Part shown: one piece after another, positions 8,741 through 38,566 of the stretch
Numbering within the stretch: the first letter of the stretch is position 1
How the letters are laid out: every line of letters starts with the position of its first letter
Assembly (NCBI GenBank): GCA_025980665.1
Contig: JAICXC010000009.1
Coordinates: forward strand, 209-64,208
From: Bryobacteraceae bacterium
GTDB taxonomy: Bacteria > Acidobacteriota > Terriglobia > Bryobacterales > Bryobacteraceae
DNA: 64,000 nt
Direction of reading: 5' to 3'
Translations under genes and position numbers: made by a program
Notes under the pieces: model-generated
Told to the model about the DNA's origin: nothing
Databases searched by the model: none
The model's input: the letters and a program-made list of their open reading frames with translations, nothing else

Positions 8741-8750
8741 GGTCATCCCC

Positions 8751-21198: not shown

Positions 21199-21735
21199 GT
21201 TCGGCCAGATACACAGAATCTCCGAGGCGATTCCAGTCATGCCAAATACGCTCCGAAAAAGCACTCAGATGTGACGTCGGGTGAGGCGACCCGTATTGCG
21301 ATTCTCAGGGCGGTTCGTCCCGTAATCTTCAGCCTCGCCATAACATCGGTGTGTGTTTTCTGGATCGATGGGCCGCTTGGATTGCACTGGTCGTACGGCA
21401 TGCCGCGCTTAGCGTTCATTGCAGGCGTGGTAGTAGCCGTGCTTGCCGCCGCTCTGATCGCGCGGGGCTATGCGTTCCAACAAGTTCATCTGCTCGGTGC
21501 TTCGAATTCATAAAGACCGCGAGTACTTGGTCGTCACGGACGGGCCTTACCGTTTCGTATGACATTGGGCCATGCCAGCATGTCGGCGTTTACTCTCGCG
21601 ACCCCCATTGATCTTAAATTCGAGATGGGCCTTACCGCCCGCCAGGCAAATTGCGCGGAAGCGGCCTTGCATCTGTTTTCCAACAGCATTAAACTCAGTG
21701 TCCGATCTGCAGTGGCAGACCGAGATGGGAAGTTT

Positions 21736-22239
21736 ATGAACACCTTCAATGCCATACGATTATTTCCCGTGCTGCCGTGCGGTCTCGTTTGGCCTCGATG
21801 GCTTTGGCTAATCCTATAGGCGTGTCCGGAAGCGGGACATTCTCTACCGACTTGGAAGTTACGGCAGATAGCTTTTTCTCGGTTTCGTTTTCAGGCTCAA
21901 ATGGAATCGTATCTGTGAATGCTCCCGGGTGCCGTGGCCCACTTCGCATTGCGGTGACCTGTTCCCAGACCGTCGGCTTTGCACAAATCAATGGTGTTAT
22001 CTTCGGATCTGGAAATCGATTTTGTATCCGGCAGCGACGCGGCCCACGGCCAATTCGCGAGCGTCTCCATCATCGGATCCATTGAAATCACGTCTCAGCA
22101 TTGCGTCCCAAATGTAGTTTGTACCGGCAGCTTCTTAGTGGTTCCGACGCCCCAAGTCCCGGAGCCTGGAACAGGCGGCTTTGTATTTCTTGGGGCGAGC
22201 CTCATCGCCTTCTGCGGATGGCGAAGAACTCGGGCGTAG
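21736..22239 (+). pseudogene. PEP-CTERM sorting-domain protein, apparently split over three frames
   Basis: C-terminal VPEPGTGGFVFLGASLIAFCGWRRTRA is a PEP motif plus TM helix plus basic tail. The body (GVSGSGTFSTDLEVTADSFFSVSFSGSNGIVSV.. in frame 0, DLEIDFVSGSDAAHGQFASVSIIGSIEITS.. in frame 1) and the leader MNTFNAIRLFPVL.. lie in different frames. Confidence 0.5.
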
Positions 22240-22534
22240 GGTTGATTCGCGCGCCCGAACTATTCCTCGGTCGCTTCTTGGCGTTGCCGCATTGAGTGGA
22301 CGTTAGTTCGTTGCCCTATCTAGGAGACTCCCGATACGCCAACTCAGTTTCCGCGCCTGCTCCTCGCCCAATCCGACTGGCCCAGCTACGGATGTGACCC
22401 ATTCGGCACCACGACCGCTCGTGGCACTTCGAGTTGCCGTTAATGCCCGATAGGCAAGAGTTCCATCGCTCATATGTCGCGCACCATCGCACGCCCCGAC
22501 ATGGGACTATAAGGTTACGCGCATCTACCTAACG

Positions 22535-22836
22535 ATGTTCGCTGTGGCGCTCGCCGCCGCAGCAGCGATGTACGCCGCCGACGCCAAAGCCGGCAAAGCC
22601 CAGTACGACACTTCCTGCAAATCCTGTCACGGACCCGATGGCACACCCGTTGCGGCGGTCGCCAAGATGAGGAAAGTCGAGATGAAGATCTCAAGTCGCC
22701 GGAAATCCAGTCCATGAGCGATGCTGATCTGACGGCCGTGATCACCAAAGGCAAAGGGAAGATGCAGCCGGTCAAGGCGGTCACCGGCAAATCCGTGGAC
22801 GATGTCATTGCTTACGTCCGCAGCCTGAAGAAGTAG
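22535..22836 (+). pseudogene. Small class-I cytochrome c with a frameshift near 22680-22690
   Basis: The first frame gives MFAVALAAAAAMYAADAKAGKAQYDTSCKSCHGPDGTPVAAVAKM.... The next frame continues as a normal cytochrome c C-terminus, DLKSPEIQSMSDADLTAVITKGKGKMQPVKAVTGKSVDDVIAYVRSLKK, with its stop at 22834-22836. Confidence 0.6.
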
Positions 22837-23104
22837 GTGTTCTTGCTGCGCCTTGGGCACGTGATCTCTGACTCGTCCGTTCCTACCTACCAATCGGCAA
22901 GCCCCTCGGGTTCGGCAGCCGCGACCCAAATATCGGTCTGATCGAAGAGTCTCGAGTAGTGCCTATCAGACACTCCGATTCCGAACAGAGGCAACAATCC
23001 CGTATATCGCTCTCTGAATACCGCATGACCCGGCCCCAATCCCATTAAGGCGATCGCCCCACCACCGATTACGGTAAGAAACTAGATGCCGAGGGTAAGC
23101 TCGA

Positions 23105-23475
23105 ATGCCGCTACCACCTGAACCGGTCAACAGATCAGCCGAGCGGATTGCGGAGACGGCTGTCGCCAACGACATCGGGACGGATGCGATTTCTGCGACA
23201 GTTAGTCCCAAGCGCGCCCGGCAGACGTGGCGGTCGGCATCTCGACCAGCGGCGGGTCGCACAATATCCTCCTGGCACTGGAGGAAGCCCGGAAGCGAAA
23301 ACTACTGACGGTGGCGCTGCTGGGCGACGACGGCGGCGAGATTCTACGGCGCGGCCTGGTGGATTTTCCTATCGTGATTCACTCCGACTAGATGCCCAGG
23401 ATTCAGGAGGTCCAGGCGTCGGTCTACCACATCATTCGTGAAAGGCTGGAGGTGTACATCCGTGGCCAAGGTTGA
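23105..23475 (+). pseudogene. Decayed SIS-domain (phosphoheptose-isomerase-like) gene: frame hops plus an in-frame TAG
   Basis: Frame 1 gives DVAVGISTSGGSHNILLALEEARKRKLLTVALLGDDGGEILRRGLVDFPIVIHSD*MPRIQEVQASVYHIIRERLEVYIRGQG, with the TAG at 23389-23391. Upstream pieces lie in the other two frames (..AVANDIGTDA.. and ..RFLRQLVPSAPG..). Confidence 0.5.
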
Positions 23476-23713
23476 ATTGTTCGGCGGCGCAAGCTGCCCT
23501 TATACGCGCGAAATGCGGGAATCGCTCGACTGGAAGGGCACCGAGTTCGTAGAGTACGACGTTGAATCTGACAGCGCGGCGTTCGATCGTATGCGCGCGT
23601 TGTCCGGCGGCCAGCGGACCGTGCCGATGCTGGTGGAAGAAGGCAAGGTCGTAGAGGTGGGCTGGCAGGGCCGCGGATGTGTTGTGGGCAGGGATCGCAA
23701 GCTGGATGGATGA
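23462..23713 (+). CDS. Glutaredoxin-like small thioredoxin-fold protein (single-Cys CPYT motif)
   Basis: VAKVELFGGASCPYTREMRESLDWKGTEFVEYDVESD...GGQRTVPMLVEEGKVVEVGWQGRGC. The GTG at 23462 overlaps the end of the SIS remnant. Confidence 0.7.
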   Translation: MAKVELFGGASCPYTREMRESLDWKGTEFVEYDVESDSAAFDRMRALSGGQRTVPMLVEEGKVVEVGWQGRGCVVGRDRKLDG

Positions 23714-23715
23714 CG

Positions 23716-25128
23716 CTATTTGGGCGCTTCGCCCAGGCCAAGGGTCTTCAGGATCGCGGGATCGGCTTCGTCGGTAGCAAGCATCTGGTGGCAGGTGCTG
23801 CAATCTTGCGTAATCACTTTTTTGTCGGCGGTGGAGTGTCCGCCGTCATGACAGCGGAAGCAGCCGGGATCATCGATGTGCCCCACATTGTTCGGGTACG
23901 TGCCCCAGGTTACTTTCAGGTCCGGAAACACGTTGCTGCGATAGATTGCCAGCAGCGCCTGACCCGCTAATTGGACGTCGTTCGAGCGCTTGGCCCAAAT
24001 GTCGCCGTACTTTTGTTGGTAGAAAGTGTTCAGGCGGGCGGGGATTTTTTGCGCGGCGTCGTCTTCGCTCGAGTAAGTAGCTTTCAGCAACTCGACCCCG
24101 GTCTTCTTGACGAAGGGTAACGTCGCGGAAATCCGTGCGGTGGCCATCGCGTGATCGACGGCGTGTTCGGCTAATTCGAAAGAGTGGGCCGCGCGATTGT
24201 GACAATCGACGCACTGCATTTCGAAGGTCGGAAGAGCACGGGCGGCATCGGGCGTTGTACCGTCGGCGAGGTAGGTGCGCGTCGCGCCGCCGTTGCTGTA
24301 CTCGACCCAGGGGATGGTCTGCCGTTTCTTGTCAGAAGCGGCGTACCGAATGCGGACGCCCGGACCCATGTGCGCTCCATGGATGCCGCCCGTATTTCCG
24401 CCGCCCACCAGCATCATCAAGACCGTCTCGGTGCGCGTGTTGGTTTCATCGTCCTTGAAGCTGCTGTGCATGCGCAGGCGCGGGCCGATGACCTTCCCAC
24501 GAGCGTGGCACTGCTCGCATGTATCGGCTGAAGAAACCAGACGGTTGCTCTCTAGACCCGATTCGATCGGCCGCGGAAAGGTGTTGAACGTTACCGCGAG
24601 CAGCTGATTCGTCCCCGCCATCTTCGCTCTGATCCAGCCAGTCGCGCCGGGAACAATATGGCAAGTGGCGCACGCGATCTGTTGGTGCGGCGGAAGGAGA
24701 TGAGCGGTGAACTCAGGCTTCATGACGTGGCAGCTCTGCCCACAGAACTGGGTGGTTTCCATATGCTCGACGGCACGATAGGTGAGCTGGCTTCCGATGA
24801 CCAGATTCGCCATGGTCATGATCGCGAAAAACATACCGGCGCGCCGCCAGGCGGCTCTACGATCAATCGGCGTGCTCAAGGCCTCAGCGGCCTTGCGTCG
24901 TCCGAGCGCGATGCCAATGGGAATCAGCGCGAGACCCGCGAAAAACACGACTGGAATCGCGATAAACGTAAGCAGCCCGATGTAGGGATTGCTGACATTC
25001 CCGCGAATGTTGGCCGGCAGCGCAAAGAGCCATGAAAAGCCGGCCAGCGTCACCAGCGCGACGCCCGCCATAGTGACCCAGTGGCTGGTAAGCAGAACGA
25101 TTACAGGCTGCTTAGGGTGATCGGGCAT
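23716..25128 (-). CDS. Membrane-anchored NapC/NirT-like multihaem cytochrome (5 CxxCH plus 1 CxxxCH), candidate quinol dehydrogenase of the conduit
   Basis: Three N-terminal hydrophobic helices. NapC-type METTQFCGQSCHVMKPEF, then CATCH, CEQCH, CVDCH, CFRCH and CSTCH. Last gene of the operon, 1 nt after the upstream stop. Confidence 0.75.
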   Translation of the reverse strand: MPDHPKQPVIVLLTSHWVTMAGVALVTLAGFSWLFALPANIRGNVSNPYIGLLTFIAIPVVFFAGLALIPIGIALGRRKAAEALSTPIDRRAAWRRAGMFFAIMTMANLVIGSQLTYRAVEHMETTQFCGQSCHVMKPEFTAHLLPPHQQIACATCHIVPGATGWIRAKMAGTNQLLAVTFNTFPRPIESGLESNRLVSSADTCEQCHARGKVIGPRLRMHSSFKDDETNTRTETVLMMLVGGGNTGGIHGAHMGPGVRIRYAASDKKRQTIPWVEYSNGGATRTYLADGTTPDAARALPTFEMQCVDCHNRAAHSFELAEHAVDHAMATARISATLPFVKKTGVELLKATYSSEDDAAQKIPARLNTFYQQKYGDIWAKRSNDVQLAGQALLAIYRSNVFPDLKVTWGTYPNNVGHIDDPGCFRCHDGGHSTADKKVITQDCSTCHQMLATDEADPAILKTLGLGEAPK

Positions 25129-25129
25129 T

Positions 25130-26239
25130 TCAGTTTCCCTTGTTCTGCGCGTTTAGATAAGCGATCAGGTTCGCCATGTCCGATCCTTCAAAGCGCGGCC
25201 ACGCGATACCCTTGGTTTTCATTTGGTCGAGCATTTGCGGCCCATGATGCCAGAGCACGGAGACCAGCGTGGCGGCAGTGTACGAGCGGCTCGCACCGGT
25301 GAGCTTGGGCGCTCCGCTCGAAGGATCGTTATGGCAGGTGGCACAGTGCTTGGCCGTGAAAACACGCCCGCCCGCCGCAGGATTTCCCTGGTCCTTAAAA
25401 AACTGCTCCGCCCACAAATAGCTGGCGATATCGCGCATCTCGACCAATTCGAGCGGAGCCGGCGCCGCGGACATTCGGGGCTCGTGATTCCACATGGCGA
25501 CGGCGATATCGGTCAGCGTTTTGCCTTTTAGGCGTGACGTCAGCGCGGCCTTGCCGTTATGGCAGGACGCACATCCCTTCGAGTCGAATAGTGCCTGGCC
25601 ATTCGTTCCAGCGGTGATCTCAATGCGGGCGTTTGCGTTGGGCGCCGAGGGAAGGTTCCGGAGATAGACCAGCATGTCCGTTAAATCCTGCGCGGTCAGC
25701 TCGGGCCAGGCCAATTTCTTCTTCGCAAACTCCTCGCGCATGGTGGCAGCGTGATTCCACAAGGCGTTCACCATCTCTAGCGGTCGCCCCAAGGATTCCC
25801 ATTGAGAAACCGGCTTGGCTTCGGGAAGTTTCGCATCTGTCAGGCCATGGCATTCCGCGCAATGTTTTGAGGCAAACAGGCGTTTGCCGCGGCCCGCATC
25901 GCCCAGTCTCTCGAAGAAACGTGCCGAGTAAAAATAGGCGAACAGATCGGCGGCCGCCTGCTCATTGAGATCGCCCGGACTGACGTTTCGCGTGCGCATC
26001 GCCGCCCACATTGCCGGCGCGTGGTTCCACATGGTGGCAGCGAGCGACGCGGGCGTGAAATCGCGATCGATGCGGCGGCCCAGGTCTGGCCCAACTTTTC
26101 CACCCTTGCCGTTGATGCTATGGCACTGAACACAGGAAAGCGTCTCGAACAGCTGCTCGCCGCGCGCGGAGTCCGCCGCGACGGTGGCCGCGCGAAGGCT
26201 GAGGGCCGCGAATGACAGGATAAAAAGGGCTCGGGTCAT
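25130..26239 (-). CDS. Periplasmic cytochrome with four tandem class-I c modules (4 CxxCH)
   Basis: The ATG at 26239 overlaps the barrel gene stop (ATGA). Signal peptide MTRALFILSFAALSLRAATVAA. Haem sites CVQCH, CAECH, CASCH and CATCH. WNH motifs TMWNHAPAMW, ALWNHAATM, AMWNHEPRM and VLWHHGPQM. Confidence 0.8.
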   Translation of the reverse strand: MTRALFILSFAALSLRAATVAADSARGEQLFETLSCVQCHSINGKGGKVGPDLGRRIDRDFTPASLAATMWNHAPAMWAAMRTRNVSPGDLNEQAAADLFAYFYSARFFERLGDAGRGKRLFASKHCAECHGLTDAKLPEAKPVSQWESLGRPLEMVNALWNHAATMREEFAKKKLAWPELTAQDLTDMLVYLRNLPSAPNANARIEITAGTNGQALFDSKGCASCHNGKAALTSRLKGKTLTDIAVAMWNHEPRMSAAPAPLELVEMRDIASYLWAEQFFKDQGNPAAGGRVFTAKHCATCHNDPSSGAPKLTGASRSYTAATLVSVLWHHGPQMLDQMKTKGIAWPRFEGSDMANLIAYLNAQNKGN

Positions 26240-28239
26240 CGGGTGAACCTCAGTCCGGTGGTTACCAGGTTGGTGCGGAAGCCTTCGTAGAGATAGAAAG
26301 CTTCTCCGTACCCGTAATAGCGCCAATCGGCGAATAAGCTCATCTTCTTGTTGATTGGGAGCCACAGGGTTGCCAACGGCTGATAGTAACTGGTCGCGCG
26401 GCTGCCCGAAGAGATGAAGAACGATCCACCAGCGGAGAGCTTGGGCGCGATTCCTTCAACAGTCGGAAGCTTAACGTTGAACAGAGCTGTCGCGGTGTGG
26501 GCATTGTCGCGATACAGCGACGTTTGGGGGGTCAGAGTTTGAGGAACGAGATAGCCGATCTCCGAATGCAGTGTGGATCGTGTGTAGGAACCTTGAAAAT
26601 CTCCGAACTTGCCGCCCAGGGGCGACCAGAAGAGCGACATTGATTCCTGCTGCGACCGGTAATCGTAATTCACGCCCGGCACGGGGTTATTATTGTCGAG
26701 CAGCGTGAAATCCGCCGCAAGGCTGAGCGAGGTCAGAGCCTGATAGCGCGCCTGCGCGTGGACCTTCTGATAGTCGTACAGGCTGGTGCGAAAATACGCG
26801 CCGCCGCTGGAGGCGACTTCCGCGTCGGTCCGGAGCGTGATTTTCTGGGTGGGGCGGTATGTCACTCCGCCGATACCGACGTTGCGGCGCAACTTGGCTT
26901 GATCCGAGCTCATCAGTCCCTCGGGCGGGAGAACCACGTCATTGGCCTCGCCCCATACATAACGATAGCCCCCGCGCAGCGTGAGCTTCGATGTGGCCTC
27001 GTAGAAGATATCGATCTCTTCCTGGCTGTAATTCGTCGCGAGCGAGGAAGCGAGCAGAGCGGCTATGTTTACGGAGATACCGCCGCCGGAGCTGGTGAGC
27101 ATCTGCGTCGATGCTGCCGAACCCGCGTTGTGGAGGCGATCGGTCAGCCAGGATTGGACAATACGGAGGCGACGTATGGGTCGGATTTCCGCGCCGAGGC
27201 TTCCACTGGTGTGTGGCAGTTTGGCCGCGGCGGAGAGCAGATACTGTTGGCTGGTATAGAACAGCAGTTGGCTCTGCAACAACAGGTTGCCCGTGGCGGT
27301 CTGCTGATAATTGACGCTCGTGTCGGGCTGGCTGTAGAGGAACTGCCCGTAGACGTCGAGCCACGGCGTCGCGGAGGCCGTAAACAGGCCCTTGCTGTAG
27401 ATGCTGGTCCCGCGAACGCCATAGGCGGCCAGCAGATTCGTGAGATCCGTGTTCTGGCCAAATATGCGTGTCGCCACATTGCCGAAATTCGTAGAGCCGG
27501 GGCCTTGGAAGACGCTCTGATCGTCCTTGAATGTCGTGCCGCCCTGCTCGAGGGTGGCGTGAAAACGGCTCAGTTCGAATCGGACGCCGCCGCGATAAAG
27601 ACTGGTCTGATCGCGTAACGTATTGGGCACCGGGAATTCATTGCTGTCGCTGACGAACGTCGTCGCACCGGTACCGGAGCCGGAATCCCGATCGTAAGCG
27701 AAATACGGAATGTACCAGTTGCCCGGCAGCAGATCGATCTGGAAATTCGCAAGATGCCGGCGCGTGTCGAAGGATTGCTCGCTGAGCACGATGCCTCGCC
27801 CCATCAGCGGGTCGGCGTACGATGGCAGAAAATTGAAGTACGCCATATCGCGATAGTCCGCGCTGAAATCGTACAGCTTGGATTTCTTCGCGTCCAGATG
27901 GACGGTTTGGTACGGCTCGTCGCCCCAACCGGTGGCGCGCACGTGGATCTGATCGAAGGCGCGATGCTTGGGATCGGCGAGGGTGAAGTCGGCGCCGAGC
28001 AACTTCGGTCCTGAGCCAAGATTCACGATGCTCCGGTAGGTGTTGAAGCTGCCGCCGACATCGGTGCGCCAGCGATATCCCACATCGATCGAGCCAGTCA
28101 GCCAGGACTCGGCCGAGGGAACCGGCGACGCAGCCTCCGCTGCGGTGGCACTCGCTGTCTCCGCCGGAGCAGCAGCCGGCTGTGGAGTCTGCGCTATCAG
28201 GGGAGCAACGATCACCAAAATAAGCTCCAGCTGCCTCAT
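26236..28239 (-). CDS. Outer-membrane beta-barrel candidate in the MtrB/PioB position
   Basis: 667 aa. Short signal peptide (MRQLELILVIVAPLIAQ), an Ala/Pro-rich linker, then alternating-hydrophobicity segments rich in Y/G/S/T/N/D throughout. No Cys. Ends ..TTGLRFTR. ATGA overlaps on both sides, with the decahaem gene upstream and the cytochrome gene downstream. Confidence 0.6.
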   Translation of the reverse strand: MRQLELILVIVAPLIAQTPQPAAAPAETASATAAEAASPVPSAESWLTGSIDVGYRWRTDVGGSFNTYRSIVNLGSGPKLLGADFTLADPKHRAFDQIHVRATGWGDEPYQTVHLDAKKSKLYDFSADYRDMAYFNFLPSYADPLMGRGIVLSEQSFDTRRHLANFQIDLLPGNWYIPYFAYDRDSGSGTGATTFVSDSNEFPVPNTLRDQTSLYRGGVRFELSRFHATLEQGGTTFKDDQSVFQGPGSTNFGNVATRIFGQNTDLTNLLAAYGVRGTSIYSKGLFTASATPWLDVYGQFLYSQPDTSVNYQQTATGNLLLQSQLLFYTSQQYLLSAAAKLPHTSGSLGAEIRPIRRLRIVQSWLTDRLHNAGSAASTQMLTSSGGGISVNIAALLASSLATNYSQEEIDIFYEATSKLTLRGGYRYVWGEANDVVLPPEGLMSSDQAKLRRNVGIGGVTYRPTQKITLRTDAEVASSGGAYFRTSLYDYQKVHAQARYQALTSLSLAADFTLLDNNNPVPGVNYDYRSQQESMSLFWSPLGGKFGDFQGSYTRSTLHSEIGYLVPQTLTPQTSLYRDNAHTATALFNVKLPTVEGIAPKLSAGGSFFISSGSRATSYYQPLATLWLPINKKMSLFADWRYYGYGEAFYLYEGFRTNLVTTGLRFTR

Positions 28240-29147
28240 CGCAACAGGTTCCTATCCACGTAACTTCCGTGGATCTTCTGATGGCAGACTGTGCAGTTCT
28301 GGAAGCGCGGCGAGCGCAGATCGTGAAACGCCGGCGGCACAACACCGATGGTTCCGGTGGTGTTGACCGTGGGGAGATTGGCGTGGCACTCCAGGCAGAG
28401 CAGGCGCACTTCCGGACGCGCCAGCATCCGCGGATTGGCCGAGCCATGCGGCTCATGGCAGGCCACACAGCCTTCGAAGCGCACCGGCCCGTGCTCGAAC
28501 GTGAACGGCCCACGCTTATCGCCATGGCAGTTCAGGCACCCCGGTTCATTCGCGGCGAAGGTTTGCGTCATGGCCGGACGAATACTGCCGTGCGGATTGT
28601 GGCAGTCGACACAGCTCATCGCTCCTTCCGGCAGCTTATGATGATTGGGCCTCTGAAACTCGGCCCAGACGTTGCTATGGCAGCTGGCGCACTGTTCGTT
28701 GATTGCGGCCGGCTTGCGCAGCACTAATCCATTGGGCCCGTTGGCGTGAACTTTGTGGCACGACGTGCAGGAGACCTGATCCTTGGCGTGGCTGCTTTCC
28801 AAACGGCCGACGTGGGTGGGCTGATTCAGGTGGCAGGTGAGACAGATCTTGTCGGCGACGGCCGCGGCGAGCTTCGATGGGTTGCGAATGGTCGCGGCCG
28901 AAGGCGATTCGATGTGCATCTGCGCGGGTCCATGGCAGGCTTCGCAGGCGCGCCCCTCCCAGCCACGTTTCGCGCTGGTCTCGACCGCGTCGTGGGGGCT
29001 TTTCAGGAACGAGTTATAGATATCTTCGTGGCATATCTTGCAGGTTTCCGATCCGACGTAGCCCGCTGGCAGGGCAGCAGGAGTCTGCGCGCGCGTGGTC
29101 ACGCAGGTCGCGATCAGAAAGAGAACCGCTAGTTTAATACTGCGCAT
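28236..29147 (-). CDS. mtrA: MtrA/DmsE-family periplasmic decahaem c-type cytochrome
   Basis: The ATG at 29147 gives MRSIKLAVLFLIATCVTTRAQ. Ten CxxCH in about 300 aa: CKICH, CEACH, CLTCH, CTSCH, CASCH, CVDCH, CLNCH, CVACH, CLECH and CTVCH. Starts SETCKICHED and ends CTVCHQKIHGS, as in MtrA-type proteins. Confidence 0.85.
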   Translation of the reverse strand: MRSIKLAVLFLIATCVTTRAQTPAALPAGYVGSETCKICHEDIYNSFLKSPHDAVETSAKRGWEGRACEACHGPAQMHIESPSAATIRNPSKLAAAVADKICLTCHLNQPTHVGRLESSHAKDQVSCTSCHKVHANGPNGLVLRKPAAINEQCASCHSNVWAEFQRPNHHKLPEGAMSCVDCHNPHGSIRPAMTQTFAANEPGCLNCHGDKRGPFTFEHGPVRFEGCVACHEPHGSANPRMLARPEVRLLCLECHANLPTVNTTGTIGVVPPAFHDLRSPRFQNCTVCHQKIHGSYVDRNLLR

Positions 29148-31248
29148 GCACCTTATCGACCGCAAACTCCGCGCCGGAGCTGTGGCAGACAGTGCAGCTT
29201 TCCCCGAGCGTGCTGGTGTTCGAGAGCGCGTGAGAGGCGGTGGGAATGTCCACATGGCATCCCGTGCACGCCGAAGCGATGGGCAGGATCGGGTTGATCG
29301 GCCCTTGCGGATCGACTACCGGATTGAGCCCGAGCGGAAGGTTTTGCTCGCTGTTATTGACGTGGCATAACGAGCAGTTGCGGGTATCCGTCGCCTCACC
29401 GGTGGGGCTCATCGCAGGGAAAAGCGTGCTGCTGAAGTCGTTATGGCTTCCCCCGAACCCCACCACCACATAGGTGCGTTTGGATGCCTGCATGTTGATG
29501 CCGTAGTGAATGCGATGCACCAGCAGGTTGAAGTTGATGCCTTGGGCGGGAGCGGCTTTATCCGCGGCGACTTGGGCACTCGCGCGAGTAGTTGCGTCCG
29601 TCTTCGACGGGTTGTGGCACATCACGCAGTACTCGGTATTGTTGCGGAGCGTGCCATGCAGCGACAGCGACACGTGGCATGCGTTGCAGTTGCCCAACGC
29701 TACCACTCCCCGGCGCGGCGCCAGCGGCGATCCATCGACCGAAAAATACACGACTTGGTTCTTGGCGCCATATTGGATGCTCTGTTGCGTAGTCGTGCCG
29801 GGTAGCACAACTTCCGTACGGCGCGCCTCGACGCCGATGGCATACGTGCCGGTCGAGCCAGCCGGAACGGCGTGAGTGAACGTGTAGTTGCAGTTGCTGT
29901 TCGCATCGCAGGTGGCCTTCGCCGCACTTTCCGTCACGTATCCGGGTGTGCTCGCGACGCCGAAATTGGTGTAGCCGTAATCGGTAGTCGGACCGGCCAT
30001 GGTGAACGAGATCGAGCTCAGCGCCGATAACGCAACCGGCTTCCCACCGCTGTCCTGCACGTTGAACGACACCACTGGCAGGCTTCCCGCCGTCCCGTTC
30101 GCAACTTTCGTGATGTTGACTACCAGACCGGAGAGCAAACTCAACGCGGTCGGCGCCACGTGCGCGCCCTTGATCGAGGCGTCGAAGTCGATCTCGCCCT
30201 GCGGAATGTGGCAGTTCGCACACTGATTGTCGTCAAACTGGGGTCCGCCCGGGTGATTGACGCCCGTGGCGAAATTCACGTCATCGTGGCAGGCGCCGCA
30301 GGCTGCGCGCGTGGGGTGCAGGAGATAAGCGGTTGCTTGCGCTGCGCCGGTGGTCTGTGAATGGCAGGTTTCGCATCGCCGTGGATCGCCCGGATCCGCC
30401 GGGTAGGCCACCTTCGAGAAGTCGAACGTTCCGAATTGGTTGATGACGGGAACATAGGGTGTGCCCGCCTGGACGCTCGGCAGATTCTCGCCCATGTGGA
30501 GCTTGTGAAAGAAAACCTTGGCGTCGAGAGTCGCTCCGGTATTGGCGTCGCTGGTCTGCGGCGTATGACACAACACGCACAGATCGATACCGCGCCGCGA
30601 TCCGCCATGCGCCGACAACTGGTCGTGACAGGCGTTGCAACTTACTGTCTTGATGATGTCGTGAGTGCGGGTTACCGCGGCGCCATTGGGGACAAAGTTA
30701 AATGTGGTGCTCGCGAAATTCGTGCCCAGGCTGAAAATCGTCAAATTTCGGGAACCGTAGATGCCGATGGTATGCGTAGCAGTCGCATCGAAGCCCGAGG
30801 GCGCTCGGGTGTGGAACGTGTATTGATACTGTCCGGCCCCGACCTGCGTGGATGTGCCACCCGAATCGGCTCCGGCCTGCTGCGTGGACGATAGCACGGT
30901 CCCCGACGATGCGCGCGTCGTGTAGGCCATGTAGTCTTCCTGATTGCTCGGTAGCACCGCGGCGATGAAGCTCAAGCTGATCGTCCCCGGCGTGGTCACT
31001 CCCGTTGAGTCCAGCGGCAGTCCTGCGGGATCGCTCACCGTGTAGACCGTCGAGATCGTACCGTCCGCCGCGATTTGCGCGGAATTGACTTTGATGACGA
31101 GGCCAGGACGGACGAACTCGACCGCGGGATCATCGGCGAAAAATGCCTTTTCGTGAGGAGTATATGGCCGCCGGGGAGCGCTCGCCAGACTCGCCGCAAT
31201 CACAACGATGACGGCCGCTACCCGCCACTGAGTCGCGAGAAATCTCAC
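29134..31248 (-). CDS. mtrC: MtrC/OmcA-like decahaem cytochrome (beta-domain, 5 haems, beta-domain, 5 haems)
   Basis: The GTG at 31248 has AAGGGAGG 5 nt upstream. Signal peptide RFLATQWRVAAVIVVIAASLASA. Two blocks of five CxxCH (CNACH, CVLCH, CETCH, CGACH, CANCH, then CNACH, CVMCH, CSLCH, CTGCH, CTVCH). Each block is preceded by a haem-free T/S/G/V-rich segment of about 170 aa. Confidence 0.75.
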   Translation of the reverse strand: MRFLATQWRVAAVIVVIAASLASAPRRPYTPHEKAFFADDPAVEFVRPGLVIKVNSAQIAADGTISTVYTVSDPAGLPLDSTGVTTPGTISLSFIAAVLPSNQEDYMAYTTRASSGTVLSSTQQAGADSGGTSTQVGAGQYQYTFHTRAPSGFDATATHTIGIYGSRNLTIFSLGTNFASTTFNFVPNGAAVTRTHDIIKTVSCNACHDQLSAHGGSRRGIDLCVLCHTPQTSDANTGATLDAKVFFHKLHMGENLPSVQAGTPYVPVINQFGTFDFSKVAYPADPGDPRRCETCHSQTTGAAQATAYLLHPTRAACGACHDDVNFATGVNHPGGPQFDDNQCANCHIPQGEIDFDASIKGAHVAPTALSLLSGLVVNITKVANGTAGSLPVVSFNVQDSGGKPVALSALSSISFTMAGPTTDYGYTNFGVASTPGYVTESAAKATCDANSNCNYTFTHAVPAGSTGTYAIGVEARRTEVVLPGTTTQQSIQYGAKNQVVYFSVDGSPLAPRRGVVALGNCNACHVSLSLHGTLRNNTEYCVMCHNPSKTDATTRASAQVAADKAAPAQGINFNLLVHRIHYGINMQASKRTYVVVGFGGSHNDFSSTLFPAMSPTGEATDTRNCSLCHVNNSEQNLPLGLNPVVDPQGPINPILPIASACTGCHVDIPTASHALSNTSTLGESCTVCHSSGAEFAVDKVHAQY

Positions 31249-31291
31249 CGGCAGCCTCCCTTGTCGGTATCGTACAGCAATTTGTGCGAAT

Positions 31292-31308
31292 GCAAAAGCA
31301 GTTTTTGC
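31292..31308. promoter_or_regulatory. Inverted repeat GCAAAA-N5-TTTTGC about 45-60 nt upstream of the mtrC-like start
   Basis: Read directly: tGCAAAAgcagtTTTTGCg. It is preceded by the partially palindromic TTGTGCGAATGCAA. Confidence 0.3.
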
Positions 31309-31442
31309 GCCGTCTTTTATATCTTGAGAGAATCTTCGTGTCCGCCCAACTATTTGCAAAGAAAAGCGGAGCCAATTGGCCTAGTGCCAAACCCGACGTG
31401 CGATCGAAGATGGTGGGTCGAGTGCTGCGGGCGGTGACGCAG

Positions 31443-31460
31443 TTGGGTGAGATCACCCAA
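31443..31460. promoter_or_regulatory. 18-bp near-perfect palindrome TTGGGTGA-GA-TCACCCAA in the divergent intergenic region
   Basis: Read directly. The 8-bp arms are exact reverse complements. It lies between the cytochrome operon and the RIC/NnrS genes. Confidence 0.4.
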
Positions 31461-31566
31461 GGTGCAATGTCGGCTCTCCGACCGAATTGCAAGAAAGCTC
31501 ATTTCTATCGGGAAGCATTACTTTGATCGAGTATGGGCCTAGACGTGCCTGAGTATTGACATACTT

Positions 31567-32388
31567 ATGTGTCTGACCGTTCCTGGAAAGGTCCTCAGCG
31601 TCGAAGACGGAGATCCTGCGTTCCATAACGCTGAAGGCGATTTCTGCGACGTCCGCAAAAGGACTGTGCGAGAGATCGCGATCGAGCATCCTGCCACTGT
31701 CCGGGTTTTCGAGTCGCTTGGGATCGACTATTGTTGTGGCGGCAAACAAACTCTGAAGGATGCGTGTGAGCGCGCGGGCGTGCCCGTGGAACGAACTCTC
31801 GATCTGCTGGCTCAAATTGAGGAACACACACCGTCCGAGGCCGAAAACTGGGGCGGAGCCAGCGCGCAGGAGTTGATCAGCCACATCGTCGGCCGTCACC
31901 ACAGCTACGTCCGCAGCGAGACCCCACGTCTCATGACGATGTTCGACAAGGTCGTGAGCCGCCACGGGCAAGACCACCCGGAACTGGTCCCGATCCGCGA
32001 CTTGTTCAGTGCGCTAACACAGGAACTGTTCGCACACATGCTCAAGGAGGAGAACGTCCTCTTTCCTTACCTCGAGAAGATGGACGCGGCCGTGACCCGA
32101 GGGGAACTTCCACCACCTGCCGTTTTTGGCTCCATCGAGATGCCGATTAGCCGCATGCTCGCCGACCACGACCAGGCCGGGGAGTTGCTGGCCAAGATGC
32201 GCGTCCTATCCTCCGGATATAGCGCGCCGGAGTCCGCGTGTCCTACCTATCGAGCCCTATATCACGGTTTGGAGGAATTTGAGCACGACCTTCACCATCA
32301 CGTGCACCTGGAGAATAACATTCTCTTCCCGCGCGCGCTTCATATGGAGCAGGGCACGGGCACGGAGCTGGCCCATGAGCACGACTAG
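31567..32388 (+). CDS. ytfE: Iron-sulfur cluster repair di-iron protein (RIC/YtfE/ScdA family) with a HypC-like N-terminal extension in the maximal ORF
   Basis: ScdA_N motif TVREIAIEHPATVRVFESLGIDYCCGGKQTLKDAC, then hemerythrin-like His/Glu motifs (HHSYVR, HMLKEENVLFPY, HHHVHLENNILFP). An alternative in-frame GTG start is at 31666. Confidence 0.85.
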   Translation: MCLTVPGKVLSVEDGDPAFHNAEGDFCDVRKRTVREIAIEHPATVRVFESLGIDYCCGGKQTLKDACERAGVPVERTLDLLAQIEEHTPSEAENWGGASAQELISHIVGRHHSYVRSETPRLMTMFDKVVSRHGQDHPELVPIRDLFSALTQELFAHMLKEENVLFPYLEKMDAAVTRGELPPPAVFGSIEMPISRMLADHDQAGELLAKMRVLSSGYSAPESACPTYRALYHGLEEFEHDLHHHVHLENNILFPRALHMEQGTGTELAHEHD

Positions 32389-33709
32389 TCAGATCGGCAC
32401 GAGCACGGCCGCTCTCGTTGAGCGCGAAGTGAAGATGCAGCGCATGTTGGTCGCCTACATCCTCACAGGTCTCCTGTTCCTGCTGCTGCCAGGTACGTTT
32501 CTGGGAGTGTGGAACCTCGTCTCCATCAGCAGCCGGCACGCGCTCGATAGTCTCTCTCCGGCCTTTTTGCAAGCTCACGGGCACGCTCAGATTTTCGGGT
32601 GGATTGGGACGTTCATCCTAGGCATTGGGTTCTATTCTCTGACCAAAATGGGACATCTACCCACCTTCGCCATCCCGCGCGGTTGGACTTGCTTCGGTCT
32701 ATGGGTCACCGGAATTACGTTGCGCTGGTTCGCGGGCGTCGTGGGTTGGCAGTGGAGAATCCTGCTGCCGCTTTCTGGGCTGTTGGAATTGGTGGCATTT
32801 CTGACGTTCTTCCGGACTGTCTCCAGTCATCGCCCTCCGACGCGGCCGGCAAGTGGGGCTACGGCAACCCGTCGTAGACCTGAGCCGTGGATGCTGATGG
32901 TGATCGGCTCGACGCTCGGTTTTCTGGTAACGCTGGTAATAAATCTTATCGCGACTCTTCAAGTTTCCATAAGCAACACGGGACCCGCACTGGAACACGT
33001 GTCTGACCAGCGTCTGGTGACGCTCGCGACGTGGGGCTTCCTGGTTCCCGCCGTATGGGGATTCAACGCGCGCTGGCTGCCCGTCTTCCTGGGACTCGAT
33101 CAGCCGCGCCCGCGGTTCCTGTTTCTCGCTCTAGGCCTCGGGTGGGCAGCGATTCTGGCCGAATTTTCCGGTCGACTCACCTGGTTTGCGGCTTTGCTTC
33201 CGTTCGCAGCCCTGGCCGCCGTTTTCGCGCTGCGCATTGCGGAGCCTTCCGTCCGGCCGGCTAAAACTGCCGGTGTGCATCCGAGTTTTCCGTTCTTTGT
33301 ACGACTGGCGTACCTGTGGCTGCTAGTCGCCGCAGCTCTGTCGGTGCGCGCATCCTGGAGCGATGTGAGTGGCGGCATCTGGGGCGCATCGCGGCACGCG
33401 CTCACCGTCGGATTTCTCTCGACCATGGTGTTCGCGATCGGCCAGCGAATTCTGCCCGCCTTCTGCGGTGCGCGTGTTCTCTATAGCCCTCGCCTAATGC
33501 TCGCATCGCTGGCCGCGCTGAACATCGGCTGTGTGCTGCGCGTAGCGTCCGAGATCCCCGCGTATGAGGATAACGTGCGGGTCGCCTGGCATGTATTGCC
33601 GTGCTCGGGCGTAATCGAACTGCTCGCGGTCGGCTTGTTCGCCGTGAACCTGGCACTGACATTGCTCCAACCTCCGGCTCACCTGCGACCGCTGGTTGCG
33701 ATAAGCTGA
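32375..33709 (+). CDS. NnrS-like polytopic membrane protein (NO-response associated family)
   Basis: About 12 predicted TM helices. FLQAHGHAQIFGWIGTFILGIGFY resembles the conserved His-rich NnrS helix. Overlaps the RIC stop by 14 nt. An alternative start (MQRML) lies near 32435. Confidence 0.65.
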   Translation: MSTTSQIGTSTAALVEREVKMQRMLVAYILTGLLFLLLPGTFLGVWNLVSISSRHALDSLSPAFLQAHGHAQIFGWIGTFILGIGFYSLTKMGHLPTFAIPRGWTCFGLWVTGITLRWFAGVVGWQWRILLPLSGLLELVAFLTFFRTVSSHRPPTRPASGATATRRRPEPWMLMVIGSTLGFLVTLVINLIATLQVSISNTGPALEHVSDQRLVTLATWGFLVPAVWGFNARWLPVFLGLDQPRPRFLFLALGLGWAAILAEFSGRLTWFAALLPFAALAAVFALRIAEPSVRPAKTAGVHPSFPFFVRLAYLWLLVAAALSVRASWSDVSGGIWGASRHALTVGFLSTMVFAIGQRILPAFCGARVLYSPRLMLASLAALNIGCVLRVASEIPAYEDNVRVAWHVLPCSGVIELLAVGLFAVNLALTLLQPPAHLRPLVAIS

Positions 33710-34494: not shown

Positions 34495-35502
34495 ATGGAT
34501 CCGTTTCAGCTAACACGCGCGCTCGTCGATATCGAATCGGTTACGCCCAATGAGGAGAAGATCGGATTGTTCCTGTTCGATTACCTCAAGGAGCTTGCTG
34601 CGCGCACCGGTGGCCACGTGGAGCGTTTTGAGGTGGAACCGAAGCGCTATAACTTGCTAGCGCAGTGGGGCGATCCGATCGTCACACTCTCCACCCACAT
34701 CGACACCGTCCCACCGTTCTTTGCCTCGCGCGAGGATTCTGAATTCATCTGGGGCCGCGGTGCCTGCGACACCAAGGGCATCATCGCGTCGATGATTCAC
34801 GCCGTGGAAGCGCTGGTGGCGGATGGCGTTCGCGGCGTCGCTCTGCTGTTCGTCGTAGGCGAGGAACGCAATAGCGCCGGGGCATATGCCGCCGCCAAGA
34901 TCCCGCGCGGCAGCCGTTTTCTGATCAACGGCGAGCCCACCGAAAACAAACTCGCGCTCGGATCGAAGGGCGCATTGCGCTACGAAATCGTGGCGCACGG
35001 CCGCATGGCGCACTCCGCCTACCCGCACCTAGGGGAGTCTGCTATTGAGAAACTCCTTGATGCGCTTGAGAAAATTCGCCGTATTCCTATGCCCAGCGAT
35101 TCCATCCTTGGCGCGAGTACGCTGAACATCGGCACCATTCAAGGCGGACGGGCGCCGAACGTCATCCCGGATCGTGCCCGCGCGGAGGTATTCTTCCGCC
35201 TGGTGGATTCCGGCGACGGCATCCGATCGGCGGTGGCCAACGCGTCGAAGGGTTTAGTCGAGGCGAACGAGGTTCTCTATATCCCCGCCGTTCATTTGGG
35301 TTCCGTGAGCGGCCTCGAGACCACCGTAGTGTCTTATACAACGGATATTCCCGCCTTTGATGGTAGGTGGGGACAACCTTTTCTTTTCGGGCCGGGCAGC
35401 ATCCATTTCGCGCATACGGATCAAGAGCGGATTCCGAAGACAGAGTTACTGGAAGCTATCGGGATTTATCAAAAACTAGTGAGGCAATTGTTACAGAAAT
35501 GA
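34495..35502 (+). CDS. M20-family metallohydrolase (DapE/ArgE-like; candidate N-succinyl-diaminopimelate desuccinylase)
   Basis: ALVDIESVTPNE..., STHIDTVPP, GRGACDTKG, LFVVGEE and a C-terminal GPGSIHFAHTDQERI. First gene of the lysine operon. Confidence 0.75.
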   Translation: MDPFQLTRALVDIESVTPNEEKIGLFLFDYLKELAARTGGHVERFEVEPKRYNLLAQWGDPIVTLSTHIDTVPPFFASREDSEFIWGRGACDTKGIIASMIHAVEALVADGVRGVALLFVVGEERNSAGAYAAAKIPRGSRFLINGEPTENKLALGSKGALRYEIVAHGRMAHSAYPHLGESAIEKLLDALEKIRRIPMPSDSILGASTLNIGTIQGGRAPNVIPDRARAEVFFRLVDSGDGIRSAVANASKGLVEANEVLYIPAVHLGSVSGLETTVVSYTTDIPAFDGRWGQPFLFGPGSIHFAHTDQERIPKTELLEAIGIYQKLVRQLLQK

Positions 35503-36548
35503 GCAAGAATTATCGAGTAGCGATCGCGGGAGCCACCGGAGCCGTGGGAGTGGAATTCCTGCGCTGTCTGGAACAGCGGCGATTCCCACTTGCGAGCCTG
35601 CGTTTGCTGGCCTCGGCGCGATCTCGTGGCAAGAAGATGGCATTTGCCGGCCAGGAGATCGAAGTCGAAGAGCTCACCGAGCACAGCTTCAACGATATCG
35701 ACATCGCCTTCTTCAGCGCGGGTGGATCCATTTCGAAGAAGTTCGGACCTGTTGCTGCAAAGGCGGGCGCGGTGGTCGTTGATAATTCTTCGGCGTTTCG
35801 TATGGACCCAAGCGTGCCTCTGGTGATTCCGGAAGTCAATCCGAAGGCCATGTGTGTGCACCAGGGGATCATTGCGAATCCCAACTGCTCCACCATCATT
35901 GGTATCACGCCGCTGTGGCCTATCCACCAGGTCAATCCGATCCGGCGGTTGATCGCTGCGACTTATCAGGCAGCTTCAGGAGCTGGTGCAGCCGCTATGG
36001 AGGAACTGACCGAATCGACGCGCGCGTACCTGGAGAATCAACCGTATCAGAACACCGTGCTGCCGCATCCCTACGCGTTTAATTTGTTCAGCCACAATAC
36101 CAAGATCGATCCGGAGACCGGCTACAACGAGGAAGAAACCAAGATGGCGCGGGAGACGCAGAAGATCTTCGGCGATACGGAGATTCGCGTCAGCGCGACA
36201 TGCGTCCGCGTTCCCGTGCTCCGGGCGCATTCCGAGGCACTCACGATCGAGTGCGAGCGGCCCATCACTCCGCGGGAAGTAACAAATCTACTGTTGAACG
36301 CGCCCGGCGTCAAGATCGTGGATGATCCCGAGAAGAATTACTTCCCCATGCCTCGCGACGCTTCGGGGCAGGATGACATTCTGGTCGGCCGAATCCGGCA
36401 AGACACCAGCGACCCTTCCGGGAAATCGATTACCTTGTTCGTCGCGGGCGATCAGTTGCTCAAGGGCGCGGCGCTCAACGCCGTCCAGATCGCCGAAGTG
36501 CTCATTCAGCAGGGAGGCGTTCACGGGGCATCCGGAGTTATAGGATGA
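35499..36548 (+). CDS. asd: Aspartate-semialdehyde dehydrogenase
   Basis: MSKNYRVAIAGATGAVGVEFL, active site IANPNCSTI, and AASGAG. The ATG overlaps the M20 stop (ATGA). Confidence 0.9.
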   Translation: MSKNYRVAIAGATGAVGVEFLRCLEQRRFPLASLRLLASARSRGKKMAFAGQEIEVEELTEHSFNDIDIAFFSAGGSISKKFGPVAAKAGAVVVDNSSAFRMDPSVPLVIPEVNPKAMCVHQGIIANPNCSTIIGITPLWPIHQVNPIRRLIAATYQAASGAGAAAMEELTESTRAYLENQPYQNTVLPHPYAFNLFSHNTKIDPETGYNEEETKMARETQKIFGDTEIRVSATCVRVPVLRAHSEALTIECERPITPREVTNLLLNAPGVKIVDDPEKNYFPMPRDASGQDDILVGRIRQDTSDPSGKSITLFVAGDQLLKGAALNAVQIAEVLIQQGGVHGASGVIG

Positions 36549-37894: not shown

Positions 37895-37903
37895 GAGACA
37901 GCT

Positions 37904-38566
37904 ACGAAACTTGCGATTGTAGGCTACGGGAAAATGGGCAAACTGATCGAGCAGCTTGCGCCCGAGTACGGCTTCATCGTTCATGCCCGCGTCGACGTTG
38001 GCTACAATCCCGATCTATTGAAGGGTTCCGATGTGGCGATAGAGTTCAGCACTCCGCCTGCCGCACTCGGCAATATAGAAACCTTGGCTGCGTTGGGCAT
38101 CCCGACGGTAGTTGGAACCACGGGTTGGCTGGAGCATATGGATCGGGTGCGAAACGCCGTCGCCAAGGGCGGAGCAGGGTTAGTCTGGGCGGCGAATTTC
38201 TCCATCGGAGTGAATGTGTTCCTGCGCGCCGTGCACGAGACCGCTCGACTATTGGCGAACGAGCCCGCCTATGGCTCTTGGGCGTGGGAAATTCACCACA
38301 GCACCAAGAAGGATGCACCCTCGGGAACGCTGCTGGCGTTAGTGGACGAGATGAAGGCCGCCGGATATCAACGTGTGATCGACACCAGCTCGAATCGCGC
38401 CGGGTCGCATCCCGGAACGCACGAGATCGGATTCGATTCAGCCGCTGACACGATCACCTTGCGTCATACTGCGCGCAGCCGCGAAGGATTCGCGCGCGGT
38501 GCCTTGAAAGCGGCACAATGGATCCCAGGCAAGAAGGGCGTGTTTGAGTTTAAGGAGATTTTATGA
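37904..38566 (+). CDS. dapB: 4-hydroxy-tetrahydrodipicolinate reductase, apparently starting at a non-canonical codon (ACG 37904 or ATT 37916)
   Basis: The Rossmann motif KLAIVGYGKMGK lies upstream of the first ATG/GTG/TTG (37934). AGGAG lies 6 nt before the ACG. The remainder is typical DapB (VVGTTGW, EIHHSTKKDAPSGT, SNRAGSHPGTHEIGF). Confidence 0.85.
   Translation, partial: TKLAIVGYGKMGKLIEQLAPEYGFIVHARVDVGYNPDLLKGSDVAIEFSTPPAALGNIETLAALGIPTVVGTTGWLEHMDRVRNAVAKGGAGLVWAANFSIGVNVFLRAVHETARLLANEPAYGSWAWEIHHSTKKDAPSGTLLALVDEMKAAGYQRVIDTSSNRAGSHPGTHEIGFDSAADTITLRHTARSREGFARGALKAAQWIPGKKGVFEFKEIL

Follow-up and report, generated by a model that had tools for sequence, protein, structure and literature searches.

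A probable MtrCAB-type porin-cytochrome operon with an ImcH-like inner-membrane cytochrome gene in a member of the Bryobacterales

The stretch of 64,000 nucleotides (nt) analyzed here, referred to as the window and numbered from its first letter, belongs to contig JAICXC010000009.1 of a Bryobacteraceae bacterium (assembly GCA_025980665.1). Its acidobacterial origin, which an earlier sequence-only reading had deduced from the letters, is confirmed as the order Bryobacterales. Five genes of the minus strand, spanning positions 23716-31248, probably form a single operon in which the genes of an MtrCAB-type porin-cytochrome conduit stand beside those of its periplasmic and inner-membrane partners. 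For the Bryobacterales as a group, it is proposed, at somewhat better than even confidence, that a quinol oxidase of the ImcH family is the dedicated and co-transcribed partner of MtrCAB, joined to it by class-I cytochromes in a compact, self-contained module of five to six genes that would link the quinone pool with the cell surface. The five genes of the window are the following (aa, amino acids):

29134-31248, minus strand: gene 1, mtrC-like, 704 aa, 10 CxxCH motifs
28236-29147, minus strand: gene 2, mtrA-like, 303 aa, 10 CxxCH motifs
26236-28239, minus strand: gene 3, mtrB-like, 667 aa, no Cys, signal peptide present
25130-26239, minus strand: gene 4, four-domain class-I cytochrome c, 369 aa, 4 CxxCH motifs
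23716-25128, minus strand: gene 5, imcH-like, 470 aa, 5 CxxCH motifs plus CGQSCH

Starts, lengths, and junctions were checked with an open reading frame (ORF) map and a script, and the coordinates, junctions, and motif counts of the sequence-only reading all hold. Gene 1 starts with GTG and carries a GGGAGG Shine-Dalgarno sequence 7 nt upstream. Its end overlaps gene 2 by 14 nt (29134-47), ATGA overlaps connect gene 2 with gene 3 (28236-39) and gene 3 with gene 4 (26236-39), and a spacer of 1 nt (position 25129) separates gene 4 from gene 5. Altogether, the five genes encode 29 canonical CxxCH haem sites and one CxxxCH site. This gene order is not the product of chance, because the same order recurs in dozens of species-level genomes, with conserved haem counts.

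The product of gene 1 belongs to the OmcA/MtrC family. As the sequence-only reading had anticipated, it passes the family model TIGR03507 over its full length (448.3 bits against a cut-off of 209.3), with residues 59-701 aligned to positions 2-672 of the 672 in the model. Its haem motifs are arranged in two sets of five (residues 204-343 and 521-685), each of them preceded by a haem-free stretch, of about 200 and 173 aa, respectively, and the PF22113 domain, which corresponds to domains II/IV of MtrC/MtrF, is found twice. Among the sequences of the PDB, it matches MtrF (3pmq, 9e-29) as well as OmcA, MtrC, and UndA. Ten CxxCH motifs are present in 61 of the 63 homologues of this protein. The only cysteines that do not bind haem, C447 and C453, lie in the second haem-free domain in a CX5C arrangement, a spacing retained in 59/63 homologues. 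In the Shewanella members of the MtrC/OmcA family the equivalent pair is spaced as CX8C, and the C447/C453 pair corresponds to this conserved disulphide. An AlphaFold 3 (AF3) model of a gene 1 homologue has been reported to resemble OmcA (4LMH), with a template-modelling (TM) score of 0.66 (Fiorito et al. 2026 preprint, bioRxiv 10.64898/2026.05.27.727921).

The gene 1 product holds a signal peptide and has no Cys ahead of the first haem motif, so that it lacks a lipobox; consequently, the MtrC of the window is not a lipoprotein. Approximately 27 of the 63 MtrC homologues show a lipobox-like sequence (...A-L-C-L-T-G) where the window protein reads ...AAS-LAS, with no N-terminal Cys, and homologues of both N-terminal types occur among loci L004, L009, L017, L021, and others. 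Judging from these sequences, surface attachment may differ within this MtrC family.

Gene 2 encodes a decahaem cytochrome, presumably periplasmic, of the DmsE/MtrA family. It reaches 260.4 bits with TIGR03508 (cut-off 192.2) across positions 1-257 of the 258 in the model, and its residues 32-296 match chain A of 6r2q (2.5e-39), which we take to be the MtrA of the solved Mtr complex, the molecule name given in the PDB being evidently wrong. Both results agree with the assignment proposed from the sequence. The protein carries a signal peptide, the sequences SETCKICHED and CTVCHQKIHGS, and 12 His residues beyond its 10 CxxCH motifs, and ten such motifs are found in 70/71 homologues. A decahaem of the Geobacter GSU2203 type was also considered and rejected, as gene 2 obtains 213 bits with that model, below its cut-off of 325, whereas it passes the DmsE/MtrA model.

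The product of gene 3 is predicted to be a very divergent MtrB-like outer-membrane barrel of approximately 26-28 strands. Structure prediction with AlphaFold 2 (AF2) used an alignment of 91 sequences with 45-93% identity, in which the relatives of 45-60% identity had been added through a profile search. The resulting model (predicted local distance difference test, pLDDT, 81.9; predicted TM score, pTM, 0.73) shows 27-28 strand elements, and long strands in antiparallel arrangement make up nearly all of it, while the prediction based only on 36 close homologues (67-93% identity) was unusable (pLDDT 39.8). When the model was compared with the PDB by Foldseek, the top match was MtrB (6r2q_B, E 4.2e-15, TM 0.65/0.67), and the remaining ones were 22-strand TonB-dependent transporters with TM scores of about 0.4. 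The genetic context agrees with this fold, as gene 3 adjoins a gene of the MtrA family in essentially all loci that reach far enough upstream.

Searches with sequence models gave a different picture. The gene 3 protein of the window has no match in Pfam or NCBIfam, and PF11854 and TIGR03509 report nothing even at E <= 10. PF11854 is matched by 3/36 relatives (best 1.2e-7), the scores of the relatives with TIGR03509 range from 16 to 26 bits (cut-off 240), and ten distant representatives yielded one PF11854 match, which was sub-threshold. One relative, MCC6859731.1, which is named 'MtrB/PioB family' by NCBI, is 50% identical to gene 3 over the full length. Hence, of the two tests that had been suggested for this protein, the prediction of a large barrel was borne out by AF2 and Foldseek, whereas the MtrB/PioB sequence model found no match. 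No exact record was found for the gene 3 or the gene 5 protein of the window.

Gene 5 is better described as a member of the ImcH family than as a CymA/NapC-like protein. This assignment is drawn from its architecture and from published motif and residue positions, not from a sequence alignment. ImcH has been described as a protein with three N-terminal helices and a CX3CH motif by the last helix, followed by 5-9 CxxCH motifs (PMC6295460, PMC4251993). In the Geobacter protein GSU3259 (ImcH), the motifs are located at positions 132, 156, 205, 311, 428, 448, and 486, and the helices at 13-35, 45-67, and 100-122. The motifs of gene 5 are found at 129 (CGQSCH, 129-134), 153, 204, 306, 423, and 443, with gaps (24/51/102/117/20) that nearly repeat those of GSU3259 (24/49/106/117/20) and of Acid_0432 from Solibacter usitatus (24/49/102/117/20). 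Similarly, its predicted membrane segments coincide with the positions of the GSU3259 helices. Two of them are strong (about 9-36 and 50-75) and highly conserved in the alignment of homologues, and the third one (about 97-115) is less marked, its Kyte-Doolittle mean being about 1.35 by hand calculation.

The first haem site of gene 5 reads FCGQSCHVM (CX3CH-x-M), and all of 60 homologues share its residues C129, C133, H134, and M136, with 58 of them keeping the combination of 5 CxxCH and one CX3CH. In ImcH, the residues around haem 1, as counted from H137, are E127, K173, Q179 (the distal ligand), and Y188. At the same offsets, gene 5 shows E124, K169, Q175, and F184, a match of offsets and not of an alignment; in the 60 homologues, the Lys is present in 100% and the Gln in 98%, while position 124 is occupied by D/E and position 184 by Y/F. 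The region around this site also accounts for the likeness to NapC/NirT proteins that the sequence-only reading had noticed. NrfH (2j7a_C) matches residues 120-213 with an E value of 6e-5, so that FCGQSCHVM lies over the haem-1 sequence FC-TSCHIM, and PF03264, a model of the N-terminal region, matches residues 99-187 only (25.4 bits, cut-off 24.1). The score with the NrfH model TIGR03153 is 50.8 bits, below its cut-off of 134.2, and the NapC/NirT model TIGR02161 was not reported. This likeness is confined to residues ~99-213 and does not extend to the protein as a whole, the architecture of which is that of ImcH. A CymA type was rejected for gene 5, because neither its size nor its numbers of helices and haems agree with such a protein.

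Contrary to the Geobacter ImcH, which has seven motifs, gene 5 has six, the C-terminal one being absent. The published ImcH family ranges from 6 to 10 haem motifs, and many of its members, including acidobacterial ones, hold six; such homologues are known from Anaeromyxobacter, Geothrix, and Solibacter usitatus. No match to ImcH was obtained for gene 5 in NCBIfam or Pfam. By analogy with the Geobacter protein, gene 5 would be a putative quinol:cytochrome c oxidoreductase. The Geobacter ImcH is an inner-membrane protein that oxidizes menaquinol electroneutrally and reduces the periplasmic cytochrome PpcA (Levar 2014 PMC4251993; Pimenta 2023 bioRxiv), and it is required for the reduction of high-potential acceptors (PMC4251993). 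All previously reported homologues of ImcH come from Fe(III) reducers (PMC6295460). The Geobacter imcH gene is monocistronic, and no mtrAB has been reported to adjoin any imcH (Zhong and Shi 2018, PMC6295460).

Gene 4 encodes a signal peptide followed by four tandem class-I cytochrome c domains (repeated matches to PF00034 and PF13442), each of them with a CxxCH and a W-x-H-x3-M motif. Four CxxCH motifs are found in 55/55 homologues, and the pairs H73/M77, H163/M167, H252/M256, and H332/M336 are conserved in 96-100% of 56 homologues. The sixth haem ligand can be either the invariant His or the invariant Met, and consequently the redox potential is not readable from the sequence. Among solved structures, the class-I domains of QcrC, NorC, and cytochrome cy come closest. 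Away from the Mtr genes, at 4603-5691 (plus strand), lies a paralogue that matches gene 4 over its entire length with 33% identity and has the same WNH...M motifs. This four-domain class-I cytochrome c has 362 aa and 4 CxxCH, and its neighbours encode a CBS-domain protein, universal stress proteins, and a small cytochrome c (8306-8767, minus strand).

A sixth gene often accompanies these five in relatives. Comparisons by blastn and tblastx revealed a conserved block of 270 nt 3' of gene 5, which corresponds to a cytochrome c gene of about 105 aa. Its product is a monohaem class-I cytochrome that carries a signal peptide, CKSCH as its haem motif, and a stretch reading GKGKM. In 32 loci, the gene shares the strand of the ImcH-like gene and lies at most 400 nt downstream of it; 8 loci carry it at a different place, and in 5 loci without gene 5 it comes directly after gene 4. 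In the window, its counterpart is broken and lies on the other strand:

22517-22836, plus strand: disabled small monohaem cytochrome c gene, beyond the convergent glutaredoxin gene

The start codon of this gene is ACG, and one A has been lost from an AAA run near 22686. Three contigs of 98% identity (L081-L083) keep the inverted layout with an intact gene of 106 aa. A sequencing error as the sole cause was rejected because there are two independent lesions, and this sequence comparison suggests real decay and not a single error.

The linkage between the ImcH-like gene and the Mtr genes is conserved. More than 2,100 relatives of gene 3 exist in the protein collection, the named ones being from metagenome-assembled genomes of Bryobacteraceae and Acidobacteriia. 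With one genome per GTDB species, relatives of gene 3 are encoded at 226 places, and the best 80 of these are almost all from Bryobacterales of peat, bog, palsa, and soil. Synteny was counted in 71 loci of GTDB species representatives whose sequence extends 3 kb or more beyond the 3' end of mtrB. A contiguous mtrB-gene 4-gene 5 arrangement is present in 44 of them. Gene 5 directly follows mtrB, without gene 4, in 10 loci, and comes after an insert, which is sometimes a 9- or 11-haem cytochrome, in 6. Gene 4 appears without gene 5 in 6 loci, and neither of the two in 5. In total, a homologue of gene 5 is found in 60/71 loci and one of gene 4 in 55/71.

Two further observations concern the variation of the cluster. 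In loci L005, L021, L051, and L065, a 9- or 11-haem cytochrome of ~380-570 aa lies 3' of gene 4 and is followed by a divergent ImcH-like gene, the product of which is 41-52% identical to gene 5 and keeps the CX3CH and 5 CxxCH motifs; this arrangement suggests a second variant of the cluster in its accessory genes. Moreover, three separate and complete five-gene clusters (L007, L018, and L048) are encoded on a single contig of 1.24 Mb (CAVYBC010000016.1) of a Terriglobia metagenome-assembled genome.

The sequence-only reading had presented a conduit of this kind as out of the ordinary for its lineage. This view has to be moderated, as the cluster occurs commonly among Bryobacterales and two descriptions of it already exist. 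Baker et al. (2022, mBio, PMC8805035) assigned the MtrCAB of five Acidobacteriia genomes, from Bryobacterales, to a 'Group 5', in which a periplasmic tetrahaem is encoded immediately 3' of mtrB in all cases and mtrC is duplicated in none. According to these authors, the neighbourhood of the mtrCAB genes of this group holds no inner-membrane quinone oxidoreductase (PMC8805035). More recently, the Fiorito et al. 2026 preprint has defined 'EET2' as mtrC, dmsE, a porin, and cytC in 28 Bryobacterales genomes, and has reported that this four-gene core is transcribed in (deep) anoxic peat (10.64898/2026.05.27.727921). In the preprint, main text and supplements alike are silent on ImcH and on any quinol oxidase of EET2. 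Gene 4 is the 'c-cyt group 5' of Baker et al. and the 'CytC' of EET2. The cluster type is thus already published, and the window provides a further member of Group 5/EET2 and not the first Mtr system in Acidobacteria. What is new is the ImcH-like inner-membrane partner of the cluster, which published surveys have missed or denied. The synteny count contradicts Baker et al., the EET2 preprint, and Zhong and Shi (2018) as far as Bryobacterales are concerned. In the open-access literature, no paper was found in which ImcH is paired with Mtr in Acidobacteria or in which Paludibaculum is connected with Mtr; Paludibaculum fermentans is a reported reducer of Fe(III).

According to these data, the following pathway can be postulated, with the order of electron hand-over and the cellular location of each protein inferred from the families involved. 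Gene 5, in the inner membrane, would exchange electrons with the quinol pool at a haem-1 pocket of the NrfH/ImcH type and pass them along its six periplasmic haems. The soluble gene 4 product would then carry the electrons across the periplasm, a task that the small monohaem cytochrome c may share in relatives. The decahaem MtrA (gene 2), placed inside the MtrB-like barrel (gene 3), would take them through the outer membrane, and MtrC (gene 1), at the surface, would deliver them to insoluble or large acceptors such as Fe(III)/Mn(IV) minerals, particulate organic matter, or humics. The oxidation of menaquinol and the reduction of PpcA by the Geobacter ImcH provide a precedent for this scheme. 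The idea, originally proposed for the operon, of a self-contained path between quinol pool and cell surface is reasonable, and it goes beyond both published descriptions of the cluster.

With regard to the direction of flow, electrons would run mainly outward, in anaerobic respiration, a view that is held with a slight preference; the wire itself is probably reversible. Outward flow is favoured because ImcH homologues were known only from Fe(III) reducers, because a surface MtrC is present, and because the core genes are reported to be expressed in anoxic peat. An unlikely alternative is that the same wire runs mainly inward. Electrons from Fe(II) outside the cell, from reduced humics, or from other solids in reduced form would then enter through MtrC and MtrAB and reach a terminal oxidase by way of the class-I cytochrome(s). 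A part of them would be driven uphill into the quinone pool by the ImcH-like protein, as has been proposed for Mto/Pio. Bryobacterales are largely aerobic heterotrophs of oxic-anoxic interfaces, which fits such a role. So does the succession of a class-I cytochrome c and a NapC/NirT-related membrane cytochrome after mtrB, parallel to mtoD-cymA, as well as the presence, both in gene 4 and in the small cytochrome of the sixth gene, of class-I domains akin to those serving bc1 complexes and oxidases. In addition, signs of gene flow have been detected between Group 5 and the betaproteobacterial Group 4, the holder of mto-type accessory genes (PMC8805035), and Shewanella Mtr conduits are reversible (PMC6295460). 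However, the discovery of the earlier ImcH homologues in Fe(III) reducers only speaks against inward flow, and the titration range of the Geobacter protein, -350 to -150 mV, is appropriate for the oxidation of quinol. Mto/Pio systems usually lack a surface MtrC, and the window cluster has one. Furthermore, the transcription of the four-gene core was reported from deep anoxic peat, and within the window the cluster has no linked genes for an oxidase or for carbon fixation.

Two other readings concern the role of individual components. Gene 5 might be a bystander, that is, an ImcH/NrfH-like quinol dehydrogenase of another periplasmic pathway, as its omission from both published descriptions (Baker et al. 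and the EET2 four-gene core), the 11/71 loci without a homologue, and the abundance in Acidobacteria of ImcH homologues with no adjoining Mtr cluster (PMC6295460) would allow. This is rather improbable, given that the homologue stands on the same strand just downstream in more loci (60/71) than gene 4 itself (55/71), that in the window the two genes are separated by only 1 nt, that gene 5 directly follows mtrB in the 10 loci lacking gene 4, and that three separate complete five-gene copies share one contig. Still more doubtful, to the point of being highly improbable, is a DmsEF-like or otherwise non-mineral role, in which electrons would go to a soluble or enzyme-bound extracellular acceptor. 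The best curated family of gene 2 is indeed named after DmsE, and MtrAB-type modules of Shewanella pair with different surface partners, but the neighbour of mtrA is here a full-length MtrC/OmcA decahaem and not a DmsAB-type reductase, and the flanks hold no gene for a molybdoenzyme or any other terminal reductase.

Several points weigh against the proposed outward, quinol-driven conduit and temper the confidence placed in it. Gene 3 fails the MtrB/PioB sequence models, its relatives stay far under the TIGR03509 cut-off, and profiles of its family retrieve no MtrB among the PDB sequences. It also lacks the N-terminal CxxC, having no Cys whatever, while C42 of this motif in Shewanella MtrB is required for Fe(III) reduction. 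Another such point is the absence of a lipobox Cys by which the window MtrC could be held at the cell surface. Gene 5 has been compared with ImcH through published positions only and not by direct alignment. Class-I cytochrome c domains would fit inward flow equally, and the same applies to the gene order, which resembles the mtoA-mtoB-mtoD-cymA of Fe(II) oxidizers. In gene 4, the axial ligand may be either His or Met. Co-transcription is deduced only from the gene overlaps and from the lack of an excess of terminators, and the function proposed for the Bryobacterales Mtr cluster is inferred throughout.

The region presumed to contain the promoter of the mtrC operon is the following:

31249-31566, no strand assigned: presumed promoter region, 318 bp, between mtrC and the divergent RIC/ScdA gene

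A scan of 23200-31700 detected no sigma-70 consensus site, and terminator-like hairpins in the same interval were not above chance (11 versus 7.2 +/- 3.3 expected). These results speak neither for nor against a single transcript.

The flanks of the cluster are unrelated to Mtr. Downstream lies the convergent glutaredoxin gene. On the other side, divergent from mtrC, the plus strand encodes a RIC/ScdA-type di-iron repair protein (ScdA_N plus hemerythrin) and a membrane protein of the NnrS family (31567-33709), a pair usually tied to nitric oxide stress. An Rfam scan of the whole window returned a single match, unrelated to the cluster, which is a lysine riboswitch (RF00168, 34225-34418, plus strand, 79.9 bits). 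The genes located 3' of this riboswitch (34495-40297) encode an M20 peptidase, aspartate-semialdehyde dehydrogenase, aspartokinase, dapB, dapA, and a dapD-like product. At 21559-22239 (plus strand), the ORF 21979-22239 ends in a PEP-CTERM signal (TIGR02595, at threshold), and the region may be a frameshifted PEP-CTERM gene whose upstream parts likely lie in two other frames. No convincing ORF is found in 22840-23437.

In peat and acidic soils, Bryobacterales are numerous and show active transcription, and much of the anaerobic CO2 production in these habitats depends on acceptors that are unresolved. The Mtr-like cluster is a published candidate for this electron-acceptor role, and the ImcH-like gene adds the missing inner-membrane step. 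Being a neighbour at least as conserved as the tetrahaem, which is counted in the core, it turns a four-gene cluster into a complete pathway that can be tested. If the proposal is true, the operon would represent the first natural link between the model electron-transfer pathways of Geobacter (ImcH) and Shewanella (MtrCAB), and a candidate portable operon for which CymA is not needed. This is not a new kind of system, and the useful addition lies in the conserved ImcH-Mtr linkage and in the modular class-I cytochromes.

Among known systems, the MtrCAB of Shewanella (6R2Q from S. baltica; S. oneidensis MR-1) shares with the window the gene order, the 5+5 organization of MtrC, the Cys pair in its second haem-free domain, the decahaem MtrA, and a barrel of about 26 strands. 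In contrast, gene 3 shows 12% identity to Shewanella MtrB in the Foldseek comparison, fails PF11854 and TIGR03509, and has no CxxC. The Shewanella MtrC is a lipoprotein with a CX8C pair, whereas that of the window is not a lipoprotein and has CX5C. The window operon also holds extra class-I cytochromes, and the inner-membrane partner is an operon-encoded ImcH-like protein instead of the unlinked, one-helix tetrahaem CymA. Indeed, the proteins of the NapC/NirT/NrfH/CymA type have one helix, 4 (or 5) haems, and ~160-200 aa, compared with the three segments, six motifs, and 470 aa of gene 5.

With the Geobacter ImcH, gene 5 has in common the three segments, the CX3CH in first place, a near-identical spacing of motifs, the NrfH-like region, and the pocket residues. 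Both differ in the number of motifs (seven in Geobacter, six in the window) and in the genetic context, as the former is monocistronic and the latter is encoded inside an mtr operon. The porin-cytochrome complexes of Geobacter (OmbB-OmaB-OmcB and Ext) resemble the window in combining a barrel-sheathed cytochrome that faces the periplasm with a surface cytochrome, and ImcH feeds them via periplasmic cytochromes (Levar 2014 PMC4251993; Pimenta 2023 bioRxiv). Unlike those conduits, the window encodes members of the Mtr families in genes 1 and 2, and the best structural match of gene 3 is MtrB.

The MtoAB-MtoD-CymA(MtoC) system of Sideroxydans/Gallionella is similar in comprising, in this order, an MtrA-like decahaem, an MtrB-like barrel, a class-I cytochrome, and a NapC/NirT-related membrane cytochrome. 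Contrary to the Mto system, the window has a surface MtrC and a periplasmic cytochrome of four domains, not a monohaem one, and its membrane cytochrome is of the ImcH type (3 helices, 6 haems) and not the CymA of Mto or a CbcL/MtoC-type protein.

The closest system is Group 5/EET2 itself, which coincides with the window in lineage, in the order mtrC-mtrA-mtrB, in the absence of an mtrC duplicate, and in the tetrahaem that follows mtrB. The EET2 porin has no recognisable domain, and its AF3 model reaches a TM score of 0.68 to 6r2q_B (10.64898/2026.05.27.727921), compared with 0.65-0.67 for gene 3. The window differs from both published descriptions in that an ImcH-like gene follows, as it does in 60/71 loci, and in that a small monohaem cytochrome is a frequent sixth gene of the cluster.

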